Below are positions 5,024 to 40,478 of a stretch of DNA of 64,000 nt, in pieces. This DNA is from a virus. The position numbers were made by a program, and so were the translations under genes. The notes under the pieces are model-generated. The model was not told where the DNA came from. It did not search any database and saw nothing but the letters and a program-made list of their open reading frames with translations. Numbering within the stretch: position 1 is the first letter of the stretch; each line of letters starts with the position of its first letter. The stretch is from IMG/VR virus record IMGVR_UViG_3300045988_056849; one strand, given 5' to 3'.

Positions 5024-6256
5024 ATGGATAAGAGTAAACAAATAACTATTCCAGAGGACGTAGTAAACCCAACGGAGTATAAGAAGATGCTTGCCTTGGA
5101 GAAACATCCAATAATTCGCAACACTATCTATATAAGTAGTGAAGGAGACGAAATCAATATTGGAATGTTACCTCATAGGTTGGCAAAACATATAGAACAT
5201 CTCAGTAGCAAAGAGCAAGAAGACATATTGGAACTCAAGAGAAAGTATAATCAGCTCCGAGCTAAGATAAGCACCGCAAAGTCTCTTGCCTTTGGGAGAG
5301 CAGGAAGGTATGGAGGTAAGAGCAAGGATGAATTAGCCGTATATAAACTCAGTCCGTTTGAGGAGGATATTATTGAGCTACTTGGGCGTATGTTTACCGT
5401 AGCAGAGGTTGTAAAGATAATGGGCGAGGATAACGGAGTAATTGTCAACGAGGACGATGTCAAGGGAATACTGAAGAAGCATATCGTTGAGATAGAGCGA
5501 AAGCGTGAGGAGTTCCGAAACCGAGTAGCAGATGTCCGACTGTATAACAAAAGACCGAGACTTGAGGAGCTTGCTTGGATGTATTCCAAAATGAAGAATA
5601 AGTATATTGCTCTCAATTCGATTGACTCTTACAACGCAATGCTTCGTACTTTGGAGCAGATACGCAAGGAAGCAGAAGGAGACATACTCAATATAAACGG
5701 AGTAGTTGATGTCAATATCGAAGTAACAATACAAAATCATATTCAGAAGGAAATACTCAAAACGATAAACCTCAAAGAGATTATCTTGGGGCGTGTCGCA
5801 GCACGTATGAATTATGACCCGAAGAAATTGGTTGCTGGTTTACATAATAGCTACTATGCGAAGTTTGTCGATATATCGGGAGACTATGACGAGAATGCTG
5901 AAATGAGCTATCCTTCCAACTCAGCTTATGACTTTGCTATGATAGAGCGTACCGCTGGACGAGAGGTAATGGATGTCAAGGCAGAAGATGTTACCGAAAC
6001 GGAACACTCCTCAGCTACAAATGTCAAAGACTTGTTCTTGTCTAAGATACGCAAGCAAAAGCAAGATATGGAAGCACGTCAGGCAGGATGGGACGCAGAA
6101 GCCGAAAGGAAAAGACCTGTTGCGGAGGATGAAACTCCAATAGACCGTAGTACGAACGGACGAGGTAAAGACAAGATACCACCGAGCAAGACGAAGGCTG
6201 GGCAGCGCAAGAATAAAGATAAGCCGTATGGTAAAGAGATAAAGACGAAGAAATAA
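5024..6256 (+). CDS. hypothetical protein with a possible HTH and a basic C-terminal tail
   Basis: 410-aa ORF. It has an HTH-like stretch FTVAEVVKIMGEDNGV, coiled-coil character and a K/R-rich tail. Confidence 0.6.
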   Translation: MDKSKQITIPEDVVNPTEYKKMLALEKHPIIRNTIYISSEGDEINIGMLPHRLAKHIEHLSSKEQEDILELKRKYNQLRAKISTAKSLAFGRAGRYGGKSKDELAVYKLSPFEEDIIELLGRMFTVAEVVKIMGEDNGVIVNEDDVKGILKKHIVEIERKREEFRNRVADVRLYNKRPRLEELAWMYSKMKNKYIALNSIDSYNAMLRTLEQIRKEAEGDILNINGVVDVNIEVTIQNHIQKEILKTINLKEIILGRVAARMNYDPKKLVAGLHNSYYAKFVDISGDYDENAEMSYPSNSAYDFAMIERTAGREVMDVKAEDVTETEHSSATNVKDLFLSKIRKQKQDMEARQAGWDAEAERKRPVAEDETPIDRSTNGRGKDKIPPSKTKAGQRKNKDKPYGKEIKTKK

Positions 6257-6280
6257 ATCATTGTAAAAGGCATGTAAATA

Positions 6281-6616
6281 ATGTGTACCGTTAAACCGTT
6301 CTACAAACATTACTTCTCACGAATAGATAAATGGGATGATAAGATAGCAAACAACTTTCTTGAGCTTGGTTACGCTGTTAGTATCGTAGTACCGTTGGAG
6401 AAAGTAAAGATATGTCAACTCATTTATCAGTATATCGAAAACGACCAAGGGCGTTGGCTTGCTAAGTCCGTTATGTTTGTAGATTTGAATTGGTACGTTC
6501 AATATAAAGCAAGGAGACTTGAGGAGCAATTCAGTAACGGAGCTTTGTCAATAGAGGACTTACAAATAACAGCTTGGGAGTTAAACAAGCAATATGATAA
6601 TCTATTAAACAGTTAA
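6281..6616 (+). CDS. hypothetical protein
   Basis: ATG ORF, no motif. Confidence 0.5.
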   Translation: MCTVKPFYKHYFSRIDKWDDKIANNFLELGYAVSIVVPLEKVKICQLIYQYIENDQGRWLAKSVMFVDLNWYVQYKARRLEEQFSNGALSIEDLQITAWELNKQYDNLLNS

Positions 6617-7053: not shown

Positions 7054-8322
7054 ATGAAAGCAATCGAATTAACAAAGAACGAAAGAGAAATTTTGAAAGC
7101 AATCGTAGCTAACGCAAAGAAGGTAGGTGATTCAGGAGTTGAGTTCATTCTTCAGGACGTAGCGAGAGAAACTGGTAAATCTATCCGAAGCGTATCAGCA
7201 ACAACTGGAAGCCTTGCTAAGAAAGGTATGTTGCTAACCGCTAATGGAGACAGCTACTTCGATGGAGAACTCACAGAAGCTGGACTTCATGAAGTAGAAA
7301 GTAGCAAGGTTAATAACAATCAAGAAGTAAAAACTCAATCAAATAAATCAAAGAATATGGCAACAAAAGCAAACAAGACCGTAAAGGTGGAAGACAGCAA
7401 GAGTGTAACGAACGCAGTTGATAACTTCGATGCTCCTGTAATGGACGAGCGTATCTTGAAGTTGAACGAATTGAAAGCTGTGAAGATGGCTAACCTATCG
7501 AAAGGCAAAAGACCTGCTGCAAAGGAAGCAAAAGAACTTGCTACCTATATTCTCAACAACTGGGATAATCTTGCCGAGTTGAAGAATATCAAGAGCGAGG
7601 ATGTAACGAATGAAGACCTTCAGAATATCTTGTCCAGTCGTTTGAAGAATTTTGAAGACGCAAGCAAAGCAGCGGAGAAAGCGGTCAAAGAAGCAGAAAA
7701 GGCTGAGAAAGCTCCGAAGGCGAAAACCGAGAAGAAGGAAACGAAGAAAGCTGCCCCTGCTAAGTCAAAGAAGGCTGATAGCAAGAAAGCAGAGCCGAAA
7801 GCGAAGGAAGAGAAGAAGGATGAACCGAAGGTGGCTAAAACTGCCCGCAAAGTGGGAGACGTTCACCCGAAGCACCCGACTTGGGTATGGACTGAGTACG
7901 CTGAAGGAAAGTTCGATTGGAGAACCAATCCAGCCGACAAGAAGCAAGGTCAGAGAACGGACAAGGCAGCGACTTCTGAAATGAAGTCCGAGCCGAAAAA
8001 AGCAGCCGTGAGTAAGAAGGCTGTTGCTAAGGAGACAAACAAAAAGGTGGCCAAAGGTGGTAAGGTTGAAAAAGAAGCTCCGAAGGAATTGACAATTGAC
8101 GAGTTCGTTGCTTTACCTTCTAAGAGTGCGAGAGGCAACAAGAAACCGAGCGAAGCCCAAAAGGAAGCATTAAAACTTGTTATGAAAGGCTACCGAGTAA
8201 CCGCTGACCATAAGTTCTTTGAGAACGCAGAAGGTGATAAGAAAGCGTGTAATTGGGATAGCGTAGTTGCTATGCTGAAGAGATACGGAATGGAGTACAT
8301 ACCAGTTGGACTTGTAAAGTAA
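7054..8322 (+). CDS. winged-HTH protein with a histone-H1-like K/A/E-rich linker
   Basis: The N-terminus LTKNEREILKAIV...VARETGKSIRSVSATTGSLAKKGML is MarR-like wHTH. The centre is KKAAPAKSKKADSKKAEPKAKEEKK low complexity. The VGDVHPKHPTWVWTEYAEGKFDWR motif is shared with ORFs 40533 and 42503. Confidence 0.7.
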   Translation: MKAIELTKNEREILKAIVANAKKVGDSGVEFILQDVARETGKSIRSVSATTGSLAKKGMLLTANGDSYFDGELTEAGLHEVESSKVNNNQEVKTQSNKSKNMATKANKTVKVEDSKSVTNAVDNFDAPVMDERILKLNELKAVKMANLSKGKRPAAKEAKELATYILNNWDNLAELKNIKSEDVTNEDLQNILSSRLKNFEDASKAAEKAVKEAEKAEKAPKAKTEKKETKKAAPAKSKKADSKKAEPKAKEEKKDEPKVAKTARKVGDVHPKHPTWVWTEYAEGKFDWRTNPADKKQGQRTDKAATSEMKSEPKKAAVSKKAVAKETNKKVAKGGKVEKEAPKELTIDEFVALPSKSARGNKKPSEAQKEALKLVMKGYRVTADHKFFENAEGDKKACNWDSVVAMLKRYGMEYIPVGLVK

Positions 8323-24067: not shown

Positions 24068-24832
24068 ATGTCGGGAATAATTTACAAATTCACTATAATG
24101 AGCAGTTTTAGATATTTCGGTCATAAGCCGTTCTATGTAGGACAATTTATGCGGGATGTTTCAAAAGAACAATTTTTGAGAAATGATTGTTTTGTATACG
24201 ATGGTAGCGGTAAGACTTGGGAAAGATTTTGTAAAGGACTCAAAAGAAAGTTTCCAACCTGCTGGCGTAAACTAATCAAACGAGAAGTCTTGTTTTATTC
24301 AGAGAATTGTTCGCAGAAGGCTCTTGATAGAATGGAAGAGTATTTCATCAAACATGAGAAGTCTCATTACTCATACGAGGTAGGCGGTTGCAACATACTA
24401 TGGGGAACTGCTAACAAGTTCGGTTCTGGAAGTCCTATGAAAGACCCAATGATTGCGGCTAAAGTTACTAAGCAATTACGAGGAAGAAGAGGAGCAAAAA
24501 GGTCAGAAGAAGGTAAGCGAAACATGTCTATTGCTGCTAAAAGGTCATGGGAGAATGCAAATAAGCGCAGAAGGTTAATTTCAAAGTCTATGTCTTCATA
24601 TATGCAGAACGGAGGAAAGGAACATTTGTCCAGAGTTAAGAAAGGAAGAAAGTTCAGCGATGAACATAGAAGGAACATTGCTTTGAATCATGCTGATATT
24701 AGCGGTAAAAATCATCCTTGTTACGGTAAGCATTTCAAATGGATAACAAATGGTTTAGTGGAACAAAGATTGGATGAAGGCAAATCAATTCCTGAAGGTT
24801 TTCAATACGGTAGAATTAAATACAAGAAGTAA
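24068..24832 (+). CDS. GIY-YIG homing endonuclease (free-standing)
   Basis: GIIYKFT-x-n-FYVGQ GIY-YIG module. The C-terminal part has repeated NUMOD3-like basic motifs (GRRGAKRSEEGKRNMS, GRKFSDEHRRNIA, GKNHPCYGK). Confidence 0.75.
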   Translation: MSGIIYKFTIMSSFRYFGHKPFYVGQFMRDVSKEQFLRNDCFVYDGSGKTWERFCKGLKRKFPTCWRKLIKREVLFYSENCSQKALDRMEEYFIKHEKSHYSYEVGGCNILWGTANKFGSGSPMKDPMIAAKVTKQLRGRRGAKRSEEGKRNMSIAAKRSWENANKRRRLISKSMSSYMQNGGKEHLSRVKKGRKFSDEHRRNIALNHADISGKNHPCYGKHFKWITNGLVEQRLDEGKSIPEGFQYGRIKYKK

Positions 24833-27104: not shown

Positions 27105-28259
27105 ATGTTTGAACAAGCAGCATGGTATGATAAGCTCCCAAACGAGAGCTTGGAAGTGTACGAGCCTCATTTGAGATTATTCTTTGAGACTATGTACGAG
27201 CGACAAATGATTTGGAAACGTAGGTTCATAGACAAGAAGGAAAGACCTTGGACAGACAACAAGATATTCCAAGAGTCAAAATTCACGAACGTGTACCGAG
27301 AACTTGACCGAAACAGTCAATGGCAAATCAAAAACATTCTTCTTGATGAAAGTCTTTCTTTGAAGAACTTGGTTTGGAAGATGATGGTTTTCCGTTTCTT
27401 CAACAATCCTGAAACATTCGAGTTTGAACCGAAGGGAAAGAGCGTTCAACCCAGTCTATTCGGAGCACCTATCAAATCAGGACTTAAACAAGCTCAATCT
27501 ATGGACGAGCTTATTTCAGCCAAGAAATGGAAGAATGGTATTCCCGATTGGGAGGAGTATGACGAAGATGAATTCAGTCGTTTCATTGCGGGCGTTCGGA
27601 GTTCGGGTCAAAATCCATATACAACCGCTTACTTGATAAACTCTCAAGCAACACCTGGTCAGCCGAGAGATTATTGTTACACAAGGGTTGTAATACCTCA
27701 CCTGCATAAGAACGTAGGAAAGCTCATTGCTACGGTGATGAAAGCTAAAAGACCAGAAGATATTATTGAGTATCTGAAAACCTTCCCTGCGGTGGCGGAT
27801 TTTATTGCTCATGAGTTCTATCAGGACTTCACATATATACCGAGATATACCAACCGTAAATTTATGAAGTTTGACCAAAACGACTTCACGAACGTTGGGC
27901 CAGGTTGTAGTATAGGCATACGCCTTATTTATCCGAGCTTGAAAACTGTAAGAGAGCAAAAACAAGCTATCTACTGGTTGAAGGAAGCAGCAACCGAATG
28001 GCTTGAGAAAATTGGTAAAGAGAAGGGTGAGCCGTTTCCGTATCTTGATTGGGACAAAGAGAGTGGAGAATATTACACTTTCAGTCGCCAAGAGTATGAG
28101 GAAGATGAATTGAACCGTGATGTGCTATATACTGAAATAACCCTTCACCAGATTGAGATGTGGTTATGCGAGTTCCAGAAATATTGGAAGATGATTATTG
28201 GAGAAGGCAAACAGCGCAGCAAATTTCAACCGAGAAGCAAATCAATTATTTCAAAATAA
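27105..28259 (+). CDS. putative DNA base hypermodification protein (5-hmdU DNA kinase helical-domain / aGPT-pyrophosphorylase-related family)
   Basis: The N-terminal signature ERQMIWKRRF...RPWTDNKIFQESKFTNVYRELDRNSQW was recognised from memory of that family. No P-loop is present. Confidence 0.55.
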   Translation: MFEQAAWYDKLPNESLEVYEPHLRLFFETMYERQMIWKRRFIDKKERPWTDNKIFQESKFTNVYRELDRNSQWQIKNILLDESLSLKNLVWKMMVFRFFNNPETFEFEPKGKSVQPSLFGAPIKSGLKQAQSMDELISAKKWKNGIPDWEEYDEDEFSRFIAGVRSSGQNPYTTAYLINSQATPGQPRDYCYTRVVIPHLHKNVGKLIATVMKAKRPEDIIEYLKTFPAVADFIAHEFYQDFTYIPRYTNRKFMKFDQNDFTNVGPGCSIGIRLIYPSLKTVREQKQAIYWLKEAATEWLEKIGKEKGEPFPYLDWDKESGEYYTFSRQEYEEDELNRDVLYTEITLHQIEMWLCEFQKYWKMIIGEGKQRSKFQPRSKSIISK

Positions 28260-28261
28260 CA

Positions 28262-29311
28262 ATGGACAAGAAATTAACAGAATTTTTTGAGAAGAAAGAA
28301 TTTGAGGTTGTAGAAAAGAAAACTACAACCCAAGTTCTTATTCAGAACTTACTTGCGTTCAGTGTACGTGAGAAGAAGGGAGGGTTGTTTGATATTTCAA
28401 TCAACATAGTAAAGGACGAAGAAGAAAAGGAGAAGCTGAGAAAGCGTATCAACCGTGAAGGCTCTTCGGAGAACGAAGGTTGGAACATTGACTTTGAGAA
28501 AACTCCGATACTTCACAACGTAACGATAAGCCAATTTGAAGCCTTCTGTAAGCAAACTAAGCTCATTGCTCAGGTGAAACGTCTTTCGGAGTTCCGAGAG
28601 GTACAGAGCGACTTCACGTTGGCAGTAGCAGAAAAGGACGGCAAAACTTTGAAGTGGCGTTCAAACCTTCCTACGGAGAAGCATATTGTTGATGCTGTAT
28701 TCAAAGGCAGCGAGTACACTCACCGTTCAGTAGGTTTGGGCGGTTTAACTCTTACCAAGAAAGACGTTGTATTGGACTTGGGTGGTAATATCGGAGCTTT
28801 CACTTGCGACATCTTCGATAAAGTCAAAAAGGTCATTGTATTTGAACCTGAAGATGTGAACTATGAATTTCTATCTACGAATATAGAAGACAACGGAGCA
28901 AAGAACGTAATTGCCCACAAACAAGCCGTAGTTGGTAATGACGATAAGGTGCGTGACTTCTATCTGGGTAAAGCTCCGTATTATTATTCATTCTTGGTAA
29001 AACATAACCGCAAGCGAGTTCCTGTTGAGTGCGTGAATATCAACGAGGTTATGAAGAAGTACAACCCTACCAAGATGAAGGTTGATATTGAAGGCTCTGA
29101 ATGGGAAGTTCTTATCAACTGCACGGACTTCGGGAATGTTGACCAGATAATCTTTGAGTACAACTTCGATATGAATATGGACTTGAAAGAGGACTTCAAG
29201 CGGTTCAAGGCTCTTCGGAAACATCTCAAGAAACACGGCTTTGACGTTCAGGAGATGGAGCGAGATATGAAGCAGAATTGGAATTTGGTTTTCATGGTAA
29301 CAAAGAAATAA
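28262..29311 (+). CDS. FkbM-family SAM-dependent methyltransferase with an unknown ~170-aa N-terminal domain
   Basis: VVLDLGGNIGAFT, VIVFEPEDVNYEFLSTNIEDNGAKNV and MKVDIEGSEWEVL. ATG 28262 lies 2 nt after the previous stop. Confidence 0.7.
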   Translation: MDKKLTEFFEKKEFEVVEKKTTTQVLIQNLLAFSVREKKGGLFDISINIVKDEEEKEKLRKRINREGSSENEGWNIDFEKTPILHNVTISQFEAFCKQTKLIAQVKRLSEFREVQSDFTLAVAEKDGKTLKWRSNLPTEKHIVDAVFKGSEYTHRSVGLGGLTLTKKDVVLDLGGNIGAFTCDIFDKVKKVIVFEPEDVNYEFLSTNIEDNGAKNVIAHKQAVVGNDDKVRDFYLGKAPYYYSFLVKHNRKRVPVECVNINEVMKKYNPTKMKVDIEGSEWEVLINCTDFGNVDQIIFEYNFDMNMDLKEDFKRFKALRKHLKKHGFDVQEMERDMKQNWNLVFMVTKK

Positions 29312-37204: not shown

Positions 37205-37410
37205 AAAAGATTAAACACTTTGGTAAATGGTTATTGACCGTAGTCATTACCGTTCTTTATTTGGTAACATTCTTTTGGGTAGGACATGTATTGTACTATC
37301 TATCGAAGGTGTTCAAAATTATCGGACATACGTTCATGCTTGAGTTCGCTTCGGCAAAAGACGAGTTAAGAACGTTTTGGAAACATTATACAAATTTAGG
37401 AGACATATGA
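37201..37410 (+). CDS. small membrane protein
   Basis: ATGA overlap. TM segment WLLTVVITVLYLVTFFWVGHVLYYL. Confidence 0.5.
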   Translation: MKKIKHFGKWLLTVVITVLYLVTFFWVGHVLYYLSKVFKIIGHTFMLEFASAKDELRTFWKHYTNLGDI

Positions 37411-38339
37411 TTTTCAATCAAGGACAGATACAAGATATGTTATCAATTCTCAAAAGGTACGAATTGGTATTCATAGCAGGTCAGTTAGGATTGGATTATC
37501 TTTCTCAATCGGATAAGGATATACTGATTGCTGCTGGAATCAATCTTGATAAGTATAAGAACAAGAAAGGAGTAATTGAGCACGCATTCCTTTTCGGTAT
37601 ATTGGCTGAGGCTATCGGGGATGCGAGAGCAAAGAAAATGACTTATGCTCAGTTTCAGAAGTTTCTTGCTTCGGGTAATTTCATACCGCTTACCGAAGAA
37701 GAGGAGTTTGCCCTTCAAACCGTAAAGAATAGAGCATACACCGACATCACCAGTTTAGGAAACCGAATGAGGACTGGGTTGAGTAACGTAGTATTGAGAA
37801 ATAATCAACAACAGACTCTGGTAGTTCAGAATATGATTAAGCAAAAGACTATCAAAGCCGTTGAACTCCGTATGGGAGCGAGAGGACTTGCGGCAGACCT
37901 TGCCGAGACTTCTCAGGATTGGGAAGTTGATTGGTTGAGAATTGCTTACTATCTTACCCACGAAGCCTATAATTCAGGACGTGCTCAGAGTATCTTGAAA
38001 GAGTACGGAGCTGATGCTGAGGTTTATTTCGATGTTTACCCAGGTGCTTGTCAGCGTTGTCGGGAGCTTTACTTGACTGACCCTGAAGACCCAGATAGCG
38101 AGCCGATTGTTTTCAAACTCAAAGATATTATTGCTAATGGTAACAATATCGGGCGAAAGGTTAAGGAGTGGAAGCCGACTATTTCACCAACTCACCCTTA
38201 TTGTCGTTGTACGATAAATCACAAGAAAGCAGGTTTTGCTTGGGATGCAGAGCTGAGAGCCTTCACCAAACCTATCAAGAAAACTTCCACTAATCCAAAG
38301 TTAAAAGGAGTGAAGTTGAATATAAAAGTATCGAAATAA
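37407..38339 (+). CDS. MuF-like (SPP1 gp7 family) head morphogenesis protein
   Basis: C-terminal CQRC...THPYCRCT motif (H-P-x-C-R-C). ATG 37407 overlaps TGA 37408-37410. Confidence 0.6.
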   Translation: MIFNQGQIQDMLSILKRYELVFIAGQLGLDYLSQSDKDILIAAGINLDKYKNKKGVIEHAFLFGILAEAIGDARAKKMTYAQFQKFLASGNFIPLTEEEEFALQTVKNRAYTDITSLGNRMRTGLSNVVLRNNQQQTLVVQNMIKQKTIKAVELRMGARGLAADLAETSQDWEVDWLRIAYYLTHEAYNSGRAQSILKEYGADAEVYFDVYPGACQRCRELYLTDPEDPDSEPIVFKLKDIIANGNNIGRKVKEWKPTISPTHPYCRCTINHKKAGFAWDAELRAFTKPIKKTSTNPKLKGVKLNIKVSK

Positions 38340-38347
38340 GATTGTAA

Positions 38348-39025
38348 ATGAAAACTGAAAAATTGTTACTCATCCAGCCGCATAGTGATGATATTCTCTT
38401 TTGTTGTTCTCATCTGCTGTTCCTTCCTCAATACGAGGTTCAGGTGCTGACCGTAGAGAATGACCCAAAGAGAATAGCGGAGGATGAAAAATTGTTTGAT
38501 TTTCTCAATATTCCGTTCCATCATCTTGAATTAGATTTTCATGATGAAAGTTATTACGAGTTCCATAAGAATTACAAAGAAGTAACGGTGGAAGCAACGT
38601 ATAAACATTTGAATGAATACTTCGGGAGGGAAACGCTGAACGAGATTGAGGAAACGCTTGTAAATTGGGTTAGAAAGTTCTTGAAAAAGAACAAAGGGTA
38701 CACGGTGGTAGCTCCTTGGGGAGTTGGTCACCCATTTCATCTTTTCGTTCGGGAGACTTTACAAGGAGCGTTGAGTTACATGGAGTATTATCGGGAGTTC
38801 CCTCACTCCTATAAAAGACGTTCTCAACCTCAAGTAGAGAAACAAAAGCAAGAATACACTCTGAAACGTTCCGTAACAGTTGAGGAGTTTCATGAAGTGA
38901 AGTGGAAACTTGCTTCCAAATTCTATCGTTCTCAATCAGGTTTACAGTTCTACGAACAGGGTTATATTAAGAAACAGCTGCCCGAAGAGATATATGTGAG
39001 GGAAGCGGATGAATTACCATTTTGA
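38348..39025 (+). CDS. PIG-L/LmbE-family de-N-acetylase
   Basis: N-terminal LLLIQPHSDDILF (the [AP]H[PS]DD motif) and downstream GVGHPFHLF (HxxH). Confidence 0.6.
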   Translation: MKTEKLLLIQPHSDDILFCCSHLLFLPQYEVQVLTVENDPKRIAEDEKLFDFLNIPFHHLELDFHDESYYEFHKNYKEVTVEATYKHLNEYFGRETLNEIEETLVNWVRKFLKKNKGYTVVAPWGVGHPFHLFVRETLQGALSYMEYYREFPHSYKRRSQPQVEKQKQEYTLKRSVTVEEFHEVKWKLASKFYRSQSGLQFYEQGYIKKQLPEEIYVREADELPF

Positions 39026-39026
39026 T

Positions 39027-40478
39027 ATGAAGATATTTATTGCTGATTTTCAGATAGCGAAATATGGCGGTATTGTAGAATATGTTGCCAGTATGCTCAA
39101 AGCGTTCCGAGATTTGGGACACGAAGTAGATGTTGCTCAAATGACTCCTGCTTCTACTACCCAGAACGCTTATAACAAGAAAGTGAAAGAATTTGAAAGC
39201 GGAGAACATCAACGCAAGATTAAGTTCCATTCTCAGGCAGGAGGTTACGAGAAAGATGAAGTAACAGGTTATTGGCGCAATAACTATTATGGATATTTCT
39301 TGCCTCCAAGTAACCGTATCGGAGTATATGAGAAGAATGCGGTTGAGAGGTGGAAGGAGCTGGTGAAGGATGCTGATATAATTCTTTGGAATTTCATGCC
39401 CACGAAAAGTTCTGCTTGGAATAAGAAGGGCGTGGAGTTCGATTTTTGGCATAAGTTCTTTGACCTTCCTTCTTCGATTAAACAAGTGTTCTTGGTACAC
39501 GATGCTTATTTCAATGTAAGAGCTTCCAATATATCGGCTCTGAAAGATAAGATAATGTTTATGGCTTGTGCTCATTTAGCTGCTTATCAATGCTGTTCTG
39601 AAATAGGTATTCCGAGAAGTTTGCTATTGAATCCACGATACCTACCCAGCGGAGCTAAGATGACCGTGAAGATGATGAATAAACGCAAGGAGGACTTTTT
39701 TGCTGCTCATATGTTTAAGTCTATGAAGCATATGGAGGAGCTGATTGCTGCCGTTCCGTATATTCAGAAGGGAGAGGAGGAACGTTTCAAAGTAAAGATT
39801 GCTGGGACAGGCATAGAATATAACTATATGACCAGCGAGACGAAAACAAAGAGTAACTATATGTGTACTACGAAGCGTGACCCAGACCTTCCGAAGAAAC
39901 TTGACGGCAAACTTTCTCTTTGGGATAGAGCCGAGAAGTTTGGAATGGAGTACATGGGTCAGATGTCGGGCGGTGAAGTTATAGATACTTTGAGAAATAC
40001 GAAGTTTGCTATTGACCCATCTTGGGCTGAACATTATGCACGTTATTGTCGTACCCATATAAACGGCTTTATTATCGAAGCGATGTTATGCGGTGCTTAT
40101 CCTGTTTTGCGTGATTATAGAGGACTGGCGAAGGTGGAAGGAAAGGAAATATATGACCCACTATTCGAGAACGTCAGAGCAATCATTATTCCGTGGGATG
40201 CTACTCCGAAAGAATTTGCTGAGGCTTTGAAAAAGGCTGCTAAAATGTCTCCTGCTAAATTCTTGAAAGATACAAAGTACAACTTTGAGTTAGTACACGA
40301 ATTGTTTAATGCTACGAAGAATGCCGAAGAGATAATCAGACTGGTTAAAGGAGGAAGAAAGCTGGTAAGGAAAGAACTTGAAAAAGGCAAAGACTCACCG
40401 AATGTTAAGAAGATAACTCATGAAATCATGGAAGAGTTTTATCATATAGAACTTCCAATTGAGTGGGAAACGGATTGA
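39027..40478 (+). CDS. GT-B fold glycosyltransferase (GT4-like)
   Basis: N-terminus MKIFIADFQIAKYGGIVEYVASMLKAFRDLGHEVDV. C-terminal HINGFIIEAMLCGAYPVL is an E-x7-type motif. ATG lies 2 nt after the previous TGA. Confidence 0.65.
   Translation: MKIFIADFQIAKYGGIVEYVASMLKAFRDLGHEVDVAQMTPASTTQNAYNKKVKEFESGEHQRKIKFHSQAGGYEKDEVTGYWRNNYYGYFLPPSNRIGVYEKNAVERWKELVKDADIILWNFMPTKSSAWNKKGVEFDFWHKFFDLPSSIKQVFLVHDAYFNVRASNISALKDKIMFMACAHLAAYQCCSEIGIPRSLLLNPRYLPSGAKMTVKMMNKRKEDFFAAHMFKSMKHMEELIAAVPYIQKGEEERFKVKIAGTGIEYNYMTSETKTKSNYMCTTKRDPDLPKKLDGKLSLWDRAEKFGMEYMGQMSGGEVIDTLRNTKFAIDPSWAEHYARYCRTHINGFIIEAMLCGAYPVLRDYRGLAKVEGKEIYDPLFENVRAIIIPWDATPKEFAEALKKAAKMSPAKFLKDTKYNFELVHELFNATKNAEEIIRLVKGGRKLVRKELEKGKDSPNVKKITHEIMEEFYHIELPIEWETD

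Follow-up and report, generated by a model that had tools for sequence, protein, structure and literature searches.

A Gene Pair Within a Phage Head Module

Two genes, ORF1 and ORF2, lie 1 nt apart in the 64,000-nt stretch of phage DNA analyzed here (the window; Table 1). The initial annotation had proposed that they encode an LmbE/PIG-L-type deacetylase and a glycosyltransferase (GT). Its coordinates for the ORF1 stop and the ORF2 ATG were reproduced, and the motifs that it had singled out (PHSDD and HPFH in ORF1; EAMLCGAYPV and an N-terminal MKIFIADFQIAKYGG in ORF2) were all found where claimed. ORF2 has an alternative in-frame ATG at 39009; its homologues begin with MKI..., which corresponds to a start at 39027. 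Metagenomic homologues number 254 for ORF1 and 378 for ORF2, the order of LmbE-like gene followed by GT gene is kept in 66 of 68 related loci, and dN/dS values of 0.05–0.10 (ORF1) and 0.06–0.09 (ORF2), comparable to that of the capsid gene, reveal strong purifying selection on both. Because homologues are this numerous, the order is kept and dN/dS is low, chance ORFs are excluded and both genes are real. Comparison of the pair to PHROGs, NCBIfam and GenBank phages (megablast, tblastn) gave no direct match, nor did PDB sequence searches with profiles of the narrow ORF1 family alignment (A1) and the ORF2 family alignment (A2). Some relatives have insertions separating ORF1 from ORF2; these were examined as possible pathway genes and rejected, most being GIY-YIG homing endonucleases, i.e., selfish elements.

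Table 1. Coordinates of the genes and motifs discussed in the text.
Feature	Coordinates	Strand	Description
HMUDK	27105..28259	+	5-hmdU DNA kinase; PF18723 HMUDK_hel, E 8.3e-49
FkbM-family methyltransferase	28262..29311	+	PF05050 6.4e-9, TIGR01444 4.9e-19; directly after HMUDK
Upstream neighbour	37377..38339	+	Conserved minor head ("MuF-like") gene; context only, outside the enzyme module
ORF1	38348..39025	+	225 aa, TGA at 39023-39025; predicted divergent LmbE/PIG-L-superfamily metal-dependent de-N-acetylase
P-H-S-D-D motif	38378..38392	+	ORF1 aa 11-15; predicted zinc ligands His12 and Asp15, general base Asp14
H-P-F-H motif	38729..38740	+	ORF1 aa 128-131; predicted third zinc ligand His131, oxyanion-stabilising His128
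ORF2	39027..40478	+	483 aa, ATG at 39027, stop 40476-40478; GT-B-fold GT4/GT5-like (retaining-type) glycosyltransferase
K-Y-G-G motif	39060..39071	+	ORF2 aa 12-15; resembles the KxGG nucleotide-sugar-binding loop of GT5/GT4 enzymes
E-A-M-L-C-G-A-Y-P-V motif	40077..40106	+	ORF2 aa 351-360; putative second Glu of the GT4 EX7E region

The pair is packed among late head genes, with intergenic gaps of 8, 1, and 54 nt, in a module that includes the portal (30943), prohead protease (46054), and major head protein (47592) genes. The gene immediately upstream bears CxxC and HPYCRC motifs and has homologues in the head regions of SP-10-like, Bacteroides DAC and Chryseobacterium phages, one of which is annotated as a "minor capsid protein"; the name "MuF-like", given to it initially and kept here as a label, finds no confirmation in Pfam or PHROG profiles. 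The 320-aa product of this gene was also considered as a counterpart of an ADDT-like protein of sister clades (321 aa) and rejected, the two having no similarity, and searches of g655 and g790 against solved structures gave no match. The closest cultured relative shares the head module and has no such pair after its MuF-like gene; the pair is therefore not a core head-assembly function, and its location in the capsid cluster is lineage-specific. The initial emphasis on capsid genes was thus misleading, since sister clades place the module in DNA-modification, nucleotide-metabolism or replication clusters.

ORF1 as a Predicted Divergent LmbE/PIG-L-Type Deacetylase

ORF1 itself scores only 13.8 bits against Pfam PIG-L (PF02585; E 0.088), below the gathering cut-off of 28.2, and is linked to this superfamily through its relatives. 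PIG-L is the top Pfam family in 35 of 38 ORF1-family members (best E 5.4e-4). A search of 1.84e9 proteins with the A1 profile retrieved P0346, P0351, and P0356 at E~3e-7, which score PIG-L at 39–42 bits, and 15 of the 39 distant proteins recruited by the ORF1-family profile are PIG-L at E≤1e-3 (best 1.2e-13). Among solved deacetylases, a profile of a broadened set (A3, ~20% identical) matches Dbv21 (6e-14), Orf2* (4e-12) and diacetylchitobiose deacetylases (~3e-5), and weakly MshB (E 0.1), BcZBP, and TT1542. An hhalign comparison of A1 to A3 was disregarded as circular, ORF1 being present in both alignments.

The predicted zinc site is conserved at all these distances. PHSDD is invariant across A1, with P, H, D, and D still invariant in A3, and aligns with PHLDDA of Dbv21 and Orf2*; H128, P129, and H131 are invariant in A1, with H131 invariant and H128 nearly so in A3, and HPFH aligns with HPDH of the same two enzymes. 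The roles of these residues (Table 1) are presumed to be those established for MshB and other LmbE enzymes. Intermediate sequences and zinc-site motifs together place ORF1 in the LmbE/PIG-L superfamily as a divergent member, in line with the first reading, and predict that it is a metal-dependent de-N-acetylase; the proposed link to PF02585 holds for family members and the broadened profile, while ORF1 itself stays below the Pfam threshold. In the AF2 model (pLDDT 94.9), the zinc-site motifs come after strands 4–10 and 118–123. Foldseek matched this model to nothing in the PDB at E≤1e-3 and to no LmbE entry among the best 50; the top matches are the Rossmann-like halves of UDP-GlcNAc 2-epimerase (TMq 0.34), a weak and generic resemblance.

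ORF2 as a GT-B Glycosyltransferase

The ORF2 model matches PDB entries at E 1e-10 to 1e-8 with Foldseek probability 1.00 and TMt up to 0.70, with glycogen synthase at the top and TarM, BshA, PimA, and MshA also present; SdgB, GtfA, and T4 alpha-glucosyltransferase (AGT) match at E~1e-10, and the last has the highest TM-scores in the PDB list (TMq 0.53–0.57). In BFVD, an 80%-identical family member superposes on ORF2 at TM 0.94 and is followed by SP-15 GTs and annotated DNA alpha-GTs; the likeness to the T4, SP-15 and DNA alpha-GT enzymes is structural only and is shared by many GTs that do not act on DNA. FkbM::GT fusion proteins are also among the structural neighbours. Profile scores are lower: Glycos_transf_1 (3.4e-4, 20.6 bits vs. 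26.4) and Glyco_transf_4 (2.3e-3, 18.4 bits vs. 28.5) fall below their gathering scores, Glyco_transf_5 matches weakly, and precomputed PF00534 or PF13439 assignments occur on 3 of the 120 ORF2 homologues listed. The predicted structure thus identifies ORF2 as a GT-B, GT4/GT5-like transferase, and the GT4-type assignment made from the sequence is borne out by fold, with both Pfam scores remaining below threshold.

Two sequence motifs of ORF2 were compared to those of such enzymes. In KYGG, which resembles the KxGG loop, G15 is invariant and K12 and G14 are nearly invariant in A2. EAMLCGAYPV, in which E351, G356, Y358, and P359 are invariant, may correspond to the EX7E region; the first Glu is missing in ORF2, where Thr343 occupies the position eight residues upstream of E351. 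The presence of a deacetylase partner and, by analogy, the use of GlcNAc by phage TAGT enzymes suggest UDP-GlcNAc as the donor. Isoelectric points (8.9 for the GT and a mildly acidic 6.0 for ORF1) were also considered as an indicator of the acceptor and rejected, as they do not discriminate.

BshA, MshA, and PimA, top structural matches of ORF2, bring to mind a small-molecule acceptor: the pair could make a GlcN metabolite in the style of MshA/MshB, BshA/BshB, or aminoglycoside paromamine, or remodel a host envelope glycan. The mycothiol, bacillithiol, GPI, and aminoglycoside pathways are all defined by the combination of a GT4 with an LmbE enzyme, and butirosin and apramycin biosynthesis also use the trio of a GT4, an LmbE deacetylase and a radical-SAM enzyme. 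Such a role is nonetheless very unlikely here. Genes for a cysteine ligase (MshC/BshC) and for inositol-phosphate, malate or cyclitol steps are absent among the ~40 window ORFs scanned with Pfam, an informal look at ORF2 identified no membrane-association signal, and a thiol cofactor would be of no evident use to a virulent-type myovirus; furthermore, the replacement of the GT-B by TAGT and the clustering with HMUDK, ThyX, and PolB (see below) point to nucleic-acid chemistry.

A Probable Hydroxymethyl-Pyrimidine Handle

The HMUDK gene, located 10 kb from the pair, probably marks the phage DNA as containing 5-hydroxymethyl-dU, and comparative genomics suggests its tie to ORF1 and ORF2. The FkbM gene directly after it, whose start is inferred from the beginning of the alignment, is 53% identical (E 3e-125) to a gene directly upstream of an LmbE::TAGT fusion at locus L070. 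FkbM alternates between HMUDK-adjacent and LmbE::TAGT-adjacent positions and links the HMUDK locus to the LmbE locus; it might, speculatively, O-methylate the sugar.

A source of the hydroxymethyl group lies farther away. A motif search of the window revealed no thymidylate-synthase (TS) homologue, and none is present in the 10-kb flanks on either side; a TS-superfamily enzyme is found two steps further upstream, on a contig that carries an LmbE-like gene and a GT gene 100% identical to those of the window. Its best solved match is CMP 5-hydroxymethylase (4.7e-17) and it has Asn at the uracil-specificity position, features that suggest a dUMP-type hydroxymethylase-like enzyme with hydroxymethylase rather than methylase activity. 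Kinase and candidate hydroxymethylase thus both accompany the pair, the first in the window and the second on the identical-pair contig; no TET or C5-methylase is seen for this phage.

Sister Clades and Gene Fusions

Several unrelated phage lineages also combine a GT with this type of deacetylase, and fused versions of the two genes occur. In L080 and L084, the order is ADDT-like, LmbE, rSAM/SPASM, TAGT, HMUDK, and portal, with the HMUDK cluster directly upstream of the portal; the MuF-like gene of L080 has no adjoining LmbE or GT. In L088 and L089, ThyX, a deoxyribosyltransferase and an HD nucleotidase precede LmbE and GT4, and in L086, LmbE is followed by a distant ORF2 homologue (E 6e-7) and DNA polymerase B. 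In these sister clades, therefore, the module clusters with HMUDK/TAGT, ThyX, or PolB; in the window, the pair is not adjacent to such genes.

A rearrangement is found in L070 and L071, which have MuF-like genes 58–60% identical and in which a single LmbE-like::TAGT fusion fills the slot from the MuF-like gene to g655, replacing both LmbE and GT-B, with TAGT-domain scores of 51 and 59 bits vs. a threshold of 27.5. An independent TAGT::PIG-L fusion is present in P0333, for which no genomic context was retrieved from viral or metagenome contigs. L072 has a standalone TAGT relative; a Tet_JBP dioxygenase is encoded two genes upstream of it, and the contig includes a C5 DNA methylase as well. An N6/N4 DNA methylase is inserted within the L021 cassette.

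ThyX, nucleoside deoxyribosyltransferase, HD 5'-nucleotidases, and dUTPase flank the LmbE-like gene in L082, L088, and L089, an environment that could also be read as one of nucleotide-pool enzymes, whose substrates, to be modified or salvaged ahead of replication, would be free (hydroxymethyl)deoxynucleotides or nucleotide sugars and not polymeric DNA. GT-B DNA GTs do associate mainly with TS-type pre-replicative pathways (Pyle et al., 2023, preprint). Such a function is most improbable: the known DNA sugars, those of T4 and of TET-associated GTs, are installed on the polymer. Bulky sugar-dNTPs are poor substrates for polymerases. HMUDK, clustered with the module in L080 and L084, likewise acts on DNA (PMC8989533).

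A Probable Amino Sugar on Phage DNA

The initial annotation had listed virion proteins, phage DNA, "possibly linked to the 27-29 kb module", and a host envelope or thiol molecule as candidate acceptors; among these, the comparative evidence favours DNA. Probably, a HexNAc, likely GlcNAc, is put on a hydroxymethyl-pyrimidine of the phage DNA, and a subsequent N-deacetylation turns it into an amino sugar. Thymidine would be at least partly replaced by 5-hydroxymethyl-dU through the TS-like hydroxymethylase; after replication, ORF2 would move an N-acetylhexosamine, most likely GlcNAc from UDP-GlcNAc, to the hydroxymethyl group or, alternatively, to a group already attached to it through the kinase pathway; and ORF1, a putative zinc hydrolase, would then strip the N-acetyl, so that the base ends up bearing a glucosamine-type sugar whose amine is free. 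Radical-SAM/SPASM and FkbM enzymes probably tailor the sugar further in relatives. The likely benefit would be to shield DNA from host nucleases, as do other bulky or cationic DNA hypermodifications.

The case for a DNA acceptor is one of guilt by association. It draws on the TAGT fusion that replaces LmbE and GT-B in the same slot, the position of sister-clade LmbE-like genes inside DNA-related clusters, HMUDK in the window together with the TS-superfamily enzyme on the identical-pair contig, the alternating positions of FkbM, the DNA methylase inserted in the L021 cassette, and the absence of the pair from the head module of the closest cultured relative. The enzymes themselves contribute two arguments: the structural neighbours of ORF2 include T4 AGT, SP-15 GTs and DNA alpha-GTs, and the closest solved relatives of ORF1 deacetylate GlcNAc already attached by a GT to a bulky acceptor. 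TET-associated GTs have been shown experimentally to put GlcNAc on 5hmC in DNA (PMC8256090).

Several observations weaken the DNA reading. The pair lies far from HMUDK and among late head genes; the kinase and the GT would be rivals for one hydroxyl, except if the GT works after HMUDK or on another fraction of the bases; DNA-modifying and small-molecule GT-B enzymes are structurally alike; ORF1 is mildly acidic; and its confident model has no LmbE structure among the best 50 Foldseek matches. TAGT is no proof of a DNA acceptor because the TAGT-family domain of eukaryotic GREB1 glycosylates a protein (PMC7968844), and SPASM-type radical-SAM enzymes are typically peptide or protein maturases.

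The last two points would fit a virion or internal-head protein as the acceptor, as would the position of the pair, which follows the minor head gene, precedes the prohead protease and capsid genes and is apparently co-transcribed with them. GlcNAc would be O-linked by the GT to a capsid, decoration, or packaged protein and deacetylated there by the LmbE-like enzyme, and the rSAM/SPASM enzyme of relatives would act on the same protein. SdgB and GtfA, protein O-GlcNAc transferases, are among the ORF2 structural matches. Capsid glycosylation in mycobacteriophages was reportedly described by Freeman et al. in 2023. Mycobacteriophages have GT genes thought to glycosylate their capsids (PMC11256854). 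A protein acceptor is still rather unlikely. The arrangement expected of virion glycosylation, a GT gene within the structural module, is found in the window's lineage only: three other lineages have the module in HMUDK, ThyX/nucleotide, and DNA-polymerase clusters, apart from head genes or independently of them, the MuF-like gene of L080 stands without it, and the cultured relative keeps the same head module and lacks the pair. In addition, ORF1 and ORF2 have no counterpart of the leader-like N-terminus common to the neighbouring putative packaged proteins.

Extended beyond the window, the DNA reading becomes a tentative proposal: abundant ~100-kb Bacteroidota-type gut myoviruses and several unrelated lineages may carry a free-amine glucosamine-type sugar on the hydroxymethyl-pyrimidines of their DNA, made by a GT and an LmbE-type de-N-acetylase and, in some lineages, tailored by rSAM/SPASM and FkbM enzymes.

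Relation to Known Systems

In agreement with the initial annotation, which knew of no described phage system with this pairing, a search of the literature on phages found no published system that joins this GT and deacetylase, and no deacetylase described in DNA glycan hypermodification. Among the nearest parallels are the TET/5mYOX-associated GT clusters (Burke et al., 2021, PMC8256090; Pyle et al., 2023, preprint), in which a sugar, including GlcNAc, is added post-replicatively to 5-hydroxymethyl-pyrimidine by TAGT-like GT-A or by GT-B enzymes; relatives of the module have TAGT genes too, either in place of the GT or beside it. The Pyle preprint, however, mentions no deacetylase, LmbE or radical-SAM step, and here the handle is probably pre-replicative hmdU and the GT of the window is a GT-B rather than a TAGT. 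The T4 alpha- and beta-glucosyltransferases, one of which is the structural match noted above, are GT-B enzymes that likewise act on a hydroxymethyl-pyrimidine, in their case hmC in DNA, supplied by a TS-like hydroxymethylase, but they transfer glucose without further tailoring, are encoded by early genes outside the head module and have no detectable sequence similarity to ORF2.

The pathway of 5-HMUDK and amino-acid:DNA transferases (Lee et al., 2018, 2021, PMC8989533) shares the HMUDK that this phage encodes and that sister clusters join to an LmbE-like gene, and M6 gp53 offers a precedent for a radical-SAM enzyme in DNA hypermodification. Known pathways of this type add amino acids or polyamines, not sugars, whereas the radical-SAM enzyme here is SPASM-type, not SPL-like, and no aGPT-Pplase was detected in the window. 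SP-15 and Carin-5 have oligosaccharide-hypermodified thymidine (PMC12686479), with sugars, including GlcNAc, on a thymidine derivative, and the Carin-5 gene block, in which gene roles are predicted, contains GTs and a deacetylase; the viral structures closest to ORF2 include SP-15 GTs. A dihydroxypentyl-phosphate linker joins the sugar in SP-15 and Carin-5, and the Carin-5 deacetylase is of the polysaccharide-deacetylase (CE4) type, not LmbE.

Outside phage DNA, MshA/MshB, BshA/BshB, and PIG-A/PIG-L combine the same two enzyme superfamilies in the same inferred reaction order, but their acceptors are small molecules or lipids, their follow-on enzymes are absent among the window ORFs scanned, and MshB is only remotely related to ORF1, also when the broadened profile is used. 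Orf2* and Dbv21, the solved structures closest to ORF1, aligned full-length with PHxDD and HPxH in register, are the teicoplanin and A40926 pseudoaglycone deacetylases, which act on GlcNAc already attached by a GT to a large acceptor; their substrate is a peptide antibiotic whose freed amine is then acylated, while no acyltransferase is seen adjoining the phage pair. Virion glycosylation in mycobacteriophages also involves GT genes in or beside the structural module, but no deacetylase partner has been described there, and the comparative contexts of the present pair point to DNA.

If the DNA reading is correct, ORF1 would be the first deacetylase known in DNA hypermodification, the radical-SAM enzyme of relatives would be the first SPASM one, and the product would be a new cationic sugar base. 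Deacetylation would yield a free-amine sugar combining bulk and positive charge, both known protective strategies, and the amine would provide a reactive handle for more tailoring. Hypermodification with sugars or amines shields phage DNA against restriction enzymes and CRISPR nucleases, complicates sequencing, and is a source of enzymes for DNA labelling; the module could thus affect the evasion of host defences by gut Bacteroidota phages and the recovery of these phages in viromes. For annotation, the case would illustrate that a displaced DNA-modification module can look like an odd enzyme amid capsid genes.

The module is present on metagenomic contigs by the hundreds, a large share of which apparently derive from the human gut, and a family of ~100-kb gut phages carries the pair in conserved form.

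The Gene Pair and Its Setting

ORF1 (LmbE-like) and ORF2 (GT-B) lie exactly where the initial annotation had placed them, and the motifs it quoted are present: PHSDD (aa 11-15) and HPFH (aa 128-131) in ORF1, and the N-terminus MKIFIADFQIAKYGG and EAMLCGAYPV (aa 351-360) in ORF2. An alternative in-frame ATG for ORF2 is found at 39009; the MKI... start is used by all homologs. Both are real, constrained genes, with 254 (ORF1) and 378 (ORF2) metagenomic homologs and, at unsaturated distances, dN/dS values of 0.05-0.10 and 0.06-0.09, respectively, vs. 0.075-0.12 for the capsid gene. All functional statements are based on homology, predicted structure and gene neighborhood.

Coordinates of the pair and of associated genes
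Feature	Location	Strand	Details
5-hmdU DNA kinase (HMUDK)	window 27105-28259	+	PF18723, E 8e-49
Portal	window 30943	+	head module around the pair
ORF1	window 38348-39025	+	225 aa; TGA 39023-39025
ORF2	window 39027-40478	+	483 aa; ATG at 39027
Prohead protease	window 46054	+	head module around the pair
Major head protein	window 47592	+	head module around the pair
Tail sheath	window 52842	+	same surroundings
N6/N4 DNA methyltransferase	L021:9297-10004		PF01555, 2.7e-18
TS-superfamily enzyme	L097:5436-6686	-	416 aa; same contig as L003

Every gene in the window is on the + strand; GC content is close to 40%, and tRNA genes are absent. A Herelleviridae-type capsid protein is encoded, and the cultured relatives closest by this protein are Bacteroides phages DAC16-23 and SJC03 (45%) and Chryseobacterium phage MA9V-3 (40%), followed by SP-10- and SPO1-like Bacillus phages. 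Related contigs span 89-100 kb. The pair itself has no nucleotide or protein match among GenBank phages. Two large conserved proteins, g655 (40533-42500) and g790 (42503-44875), are encoded between ORF2 and the prohead protease; neither has a match in Pfam or PDB. g655 matches phrog_1250 and carries a KAE(E/S)(V/I)LF motif three times (at aa 514, 547, and 647); these repeats might be protease cleavage sites.

ORF1 Is a Divergent LmbE-Like Protein

The initial assignment of ORF1 to LmbE/PIG-L does not stand on a direct profile match (PIG-L E 0.088, below the Pfam cut-off) but holds at the superfamily level through relatives. Nothing is returned for ORF1 from PHROGs, NCBIfam or a PDB search with a narrow profile, yet PIG-L is the best Pfam family for 35 of 38 members of its family. 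A family profile searched against 1.84 billion representatives recruited 281 proteins; PIG-L matches 15 of 39 distant recruits (~20% identity) at E<=1e-3 (best E 1.2e-13) and exceeds the Pfam threshold in three multidomain matches of the profile. Once distant members are included, the profile matches solved LmbE-family GlcNAc deacetylases along the whole length of these enzymes: the glycopeptide pseudoaglycone enzymes Dbv21 (6e-14) and teicoplanin Orf2* (4e-12), diacetylchitobiose deacetylases (~3e-5) and, weakly, BcZBP, MshB and TT1542. P11, H12, D14, D15, H128 and H131, invariant or nearly so throughout the set, distant members included, line up with the zinc-site motifs PHxDD and HPxH of the solved enzymes. 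The AlphaFold model, of very high confidence (pLDDT 94.9, pTM 0.92), gives weak, generic Rossmann-like Foldseek matches in PDB, none at E<=1e-3, and no LmbE structure is among the 50 matches listed. Judged by its relatives, ORF1 belongs to the LmbE/PIG-L superfamily as a divergent protein whose metal site is intact and whose deacetylase activity is predicted. Its C-terminal half (aa ~140-225) contains invariant YREFPHSYK and KFY..QSG motifs and may be a lineage-specific elaboration.

ORF2 Has a Predicted GT-B Fold

The GT4 assignment of ORF2 fares similarly: Pfam Glycos_transf_1, Glyco_trans_1_4 and Glyco_transf_4 all fall below threshold, but the modeled fold is GT-B (pLDDT 79), and superposes with TM 0.94 on the model available in BFVD for a homolog of 80% identity. 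The best PDB matches (E ~1e-10), glycogen synthase, TarM, BshA, PimA, MshA, SdgB and GtfA, identify retaining GT4/GT5-type enzymes as the neighbors of the model; the highest TM-scores in the PDB list, 0.53-0.57, belong to T4 DNA alpha-glucosyltransferase. Beyond a family member, the nearest viral models comprise a Gordonia phage glycosyltransferase, two glycosyltransferases of Bacillus phage SP-15, in which thymidine is sugar-hypermodified, two proteins annotated as DNA alpha-glucosyltransferases, and FkbM::GT fusions. A resemblance to BshA and MshA is likewise seen in published phage GT-B enzymes that modify DNA (Pyle et al. preprint), and the fold therefore cannot tell the acceptor of ORF2. 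A small-molecule or host-glycan pathway, which we consider distinctly improbable, would share the MshA/MshB logic of the pair; no follow-on genes for such a pathway appeared among about 40 window ORFs compared with Pfam.

Probable Hydroxymethylated Pyrimidines in the Phage DNA

In the window, HMUDK, a 5-hmdU DNA kinase, is followed directly 3' by an FkbM-family methyltransferase gene (both within 27105-29311); neither an aGPT-Pplase nor an amino-acid:DNA transferase is detected near it. The FkbM gene is patchy among relatives, with only a 26-aa remnant kept in L038 and L062. Genes for dUTPase, ribonucleotide reductase, helicases and exonucleases are present in the window as well. A thymidylate synthase (TS)-like gene was read not from the window but from contig IMGVR_UViG_3300014963_000008, which carries an LmbE-like and a GT gene 100% identical to those of the window; the TS-like gene lies upstream of the region matching the window and adjoins a DnaE-type polymerase gene. 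The best solved match of its product is CMP 5-hydroxymethylase (4.7e-17), with thymidylate synthases at an equal level. Its catalytic Cys aligns; at the position that sets base specificity it has Asn, as in dUMP enzymes, vs. Asp in the CMP enzyme. The protein has PCN in place of the PCH of thymidylate synthases and a C-terminal extension of ~170 aa without a match. From the TS-like enzyme and HMUDK together, we infer that the phage DNA contains 5-hydroxymethyl-dU.

The Module in Sister Clades

Sister-clade contigs were looked up after a homolog search with intermediate LmbE-like sequences. L080 (98.5 kb; portal 46% and MuF-like protein 42% identical to the window's) has the order [321 aa], LmbE-like, [94 aa], radical-SAM/SPASM (rSAM/SPASM), TET-associated glycosyltransferase (TAGT), [117 aa], HMUDK, portal; no LmbE or GT gene adjoins its MuF-like gene, which is itself downstream of this cluster. 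The gene after MuF-like (L080:16386 onward) encodes a protein exceeding 1000 aa that contains both NUDIX and Topoisomerase I domains (precomputed Pfam), a pairing unusual in a head-module gene. L084 reads ADDT (PF18724, weak match), LmbE-like, rSAM/SPASM, TAGT, HMUDK, portal. In L088 and L089, dUTPase, Rad50/Mre11-like genes, ThyX, nucleoside deoxyribosyltransferase and an HD nucleotidase precede LmbE-like, a directly adjacent GT4 and another HD nucleotidase; L082 is similar, and GT1 and sugar-epimerase genes lie downstream there. ThyX and HD nucleotidases as neighbors would suit action on free nucleotides, which we nevertheless consider very improbable. In L086 and L087, LmbE-like is followed by a 354-aa distant ORF2 homolog (21% identity over ~370 columns, E 6e-7) and then by DNA polymerase B, nucleases and a helicase. 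Other LmbE-like proteins are fused to GT4 and GT5/GT1 domains (P0356, P0359, P0375, P0384).

These clusters and fusions indicate that what stays constant is the partnership of an LmbE-like deacetylase and a glycosyltransferase of one kind or another, which rSAM/SPASM often joins; the module recurs among genes of DNA modification, nucleotide metabolism or replication. In MA9V-3, the closest cultured relative, the MuF-like gene is not followed by such a pair. The location among capsid genes emphasized in the initial annotation is correct for the window, but the position after MuF-like is peculiar to the window's lineage. Glycosylation of virion or internal proteins, for which this late-operon position argues, as do the fact that SPASM enzymes usually act on proteins and the O-GlcNAcylation of protein by GREB1, a TAGT-family domain (PMC7968844), is rather unlikely given the non-structural contexts of the module in three other lineages.

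A Possible DNA Hypermodification Pathway

On balance, we lean toward a scheme in which a sugar is added to hydroxymethyl-pyrimidine DNA and then deacetylated. The TS-like enzyme would produce hm-dUMP, leading to hmdU incorporation into DNA; ORF2 would attach an N-acetylhexosamine (GlcNAc is the probable one) either to the hydroxymethyl or to an HMUDK-route group; and ORF1 would remove the acetyl group, leaving a free amine. Further sugar tailoring could follow, by FkbM in the window phage and rSAM/SPASM in relatives, and the modified DNA would resist host nucleases. Kinase-activated hmdU can take amine or hydroxyl nucleophiles (PMC8989533), and GlcNAc transfer to 5hmC in DNA by phage TET-associated glycosyltransferases has been shown experimentally (PMC8256090). 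Phage Carin-5, whose thymidine hypermodification includes GlcNAc and which has a CE4 deacetylase gene (PMC12686479), offers a precedent, as does phage M6, in which a radical-SAM enzyme works on DNA hypermodification, for the rSAM step. DNA sugar hypermodification is already known; the new elements would be the putative deacetylase tailoring step and the accessory enzymes in relatives. The initial annotation knew of no described phage system with this pairing; in full-text literature outside subscription-only papers, no account was found in which a phage DNA glycosyltransferase is paired with an LmbE/PIG-L deacetylase, nor any of glucosaminyl-hmU or glucosaminyl-hmC as a base.

Variation at the Locus

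Gene order in 69 IMG/VR loci is MuF-like, LmbE-like, GT-B, g655, g790, protease, capsid, and persists down to 51% GT identity. An rSAM/SPASM gene (PF04055 4e-13, PF13186 1e-13), absent from the window, lies directly beside LmbE-like in 24 of the 69 (e.g., L020:8358-9323, L038:8354-9295, L048:8343-9326); it encodes ~320 aa with a CNLGCSFC motif and a Cys-rich C-terminus. In the representative protein P0243, rSAM/SPASM and LmbE-like domains are fused in frame. In L021, an insertion within the LmbE, rSAM, GT cassette carries the rSAM gene and an N6/N4 DNA methylase; a candidate second methylase gene is upstream of the rSAM gene at L026:2199-2960. In the more distant L070 and L071, the slot of the pair is occupied by a single LmbE-like::TAGT fusion (PF20691, 51 and 59 bits), with no GT-B; two rSAM/SPASM copies flank the fusion in L071, and directly upstream in L070 is an FkbM methyltransferase that shares 53% identity (E 3e-125) with the FkbM next to HMUDK in the window. 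L072 has a standalone TAGT relative two genes downstream of a Tet_JBP dioxygenase, and its contig has a C5 DNA methylase as well, a canonical DNA-hypermodification cluster.

The 0.6-0.8 kb stretches that separate LmbE-like from GT in some loci are insertions of GIY-YIG homing endonucleases, positioned exactly at the junction in at least 10 relatives (L007:1203-1890, L008:9313-10001, L010, L013, L014, L041, L042, L049, L058, L059); homing into this site appears to recur. Homing-endonuclease genes (NUMOD3, SegE-like GIY-YIG) are also scattered across the replication module (window 24068-24832; L075:2229-2918 and 5882-6547), and the genome family is therefore rich in selfish endonucleases.

Many accessory proteins encoded between portal and protease in relatives (L029:5152-7115, L039:7737-9227, L054:3286-4809, L070:2038-4966 and 7252-7845, L071:4692-6533) share an N-terminal leader-like sequence, e.g., ...ILEHR..V...I.K.F..., which resembles a signal that would direct packaged or ejected proteins to the capsid; one of the accessory proteins, L070:7252-7845, is an inorganic pyrophosphatase (InPase; PF18823, E 9e-51). 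MuF-like proteins reach 484-711 aa in several relatives (L011:7138-9273, L016:7281-9308, L022:6621-8327, L041:5791-7452, L030:7142-8596, L068:7743-9212) vs. 320 aa in the window, with variable C-terminal extensions reminiscent of MuF-fused toxin/effector domains.
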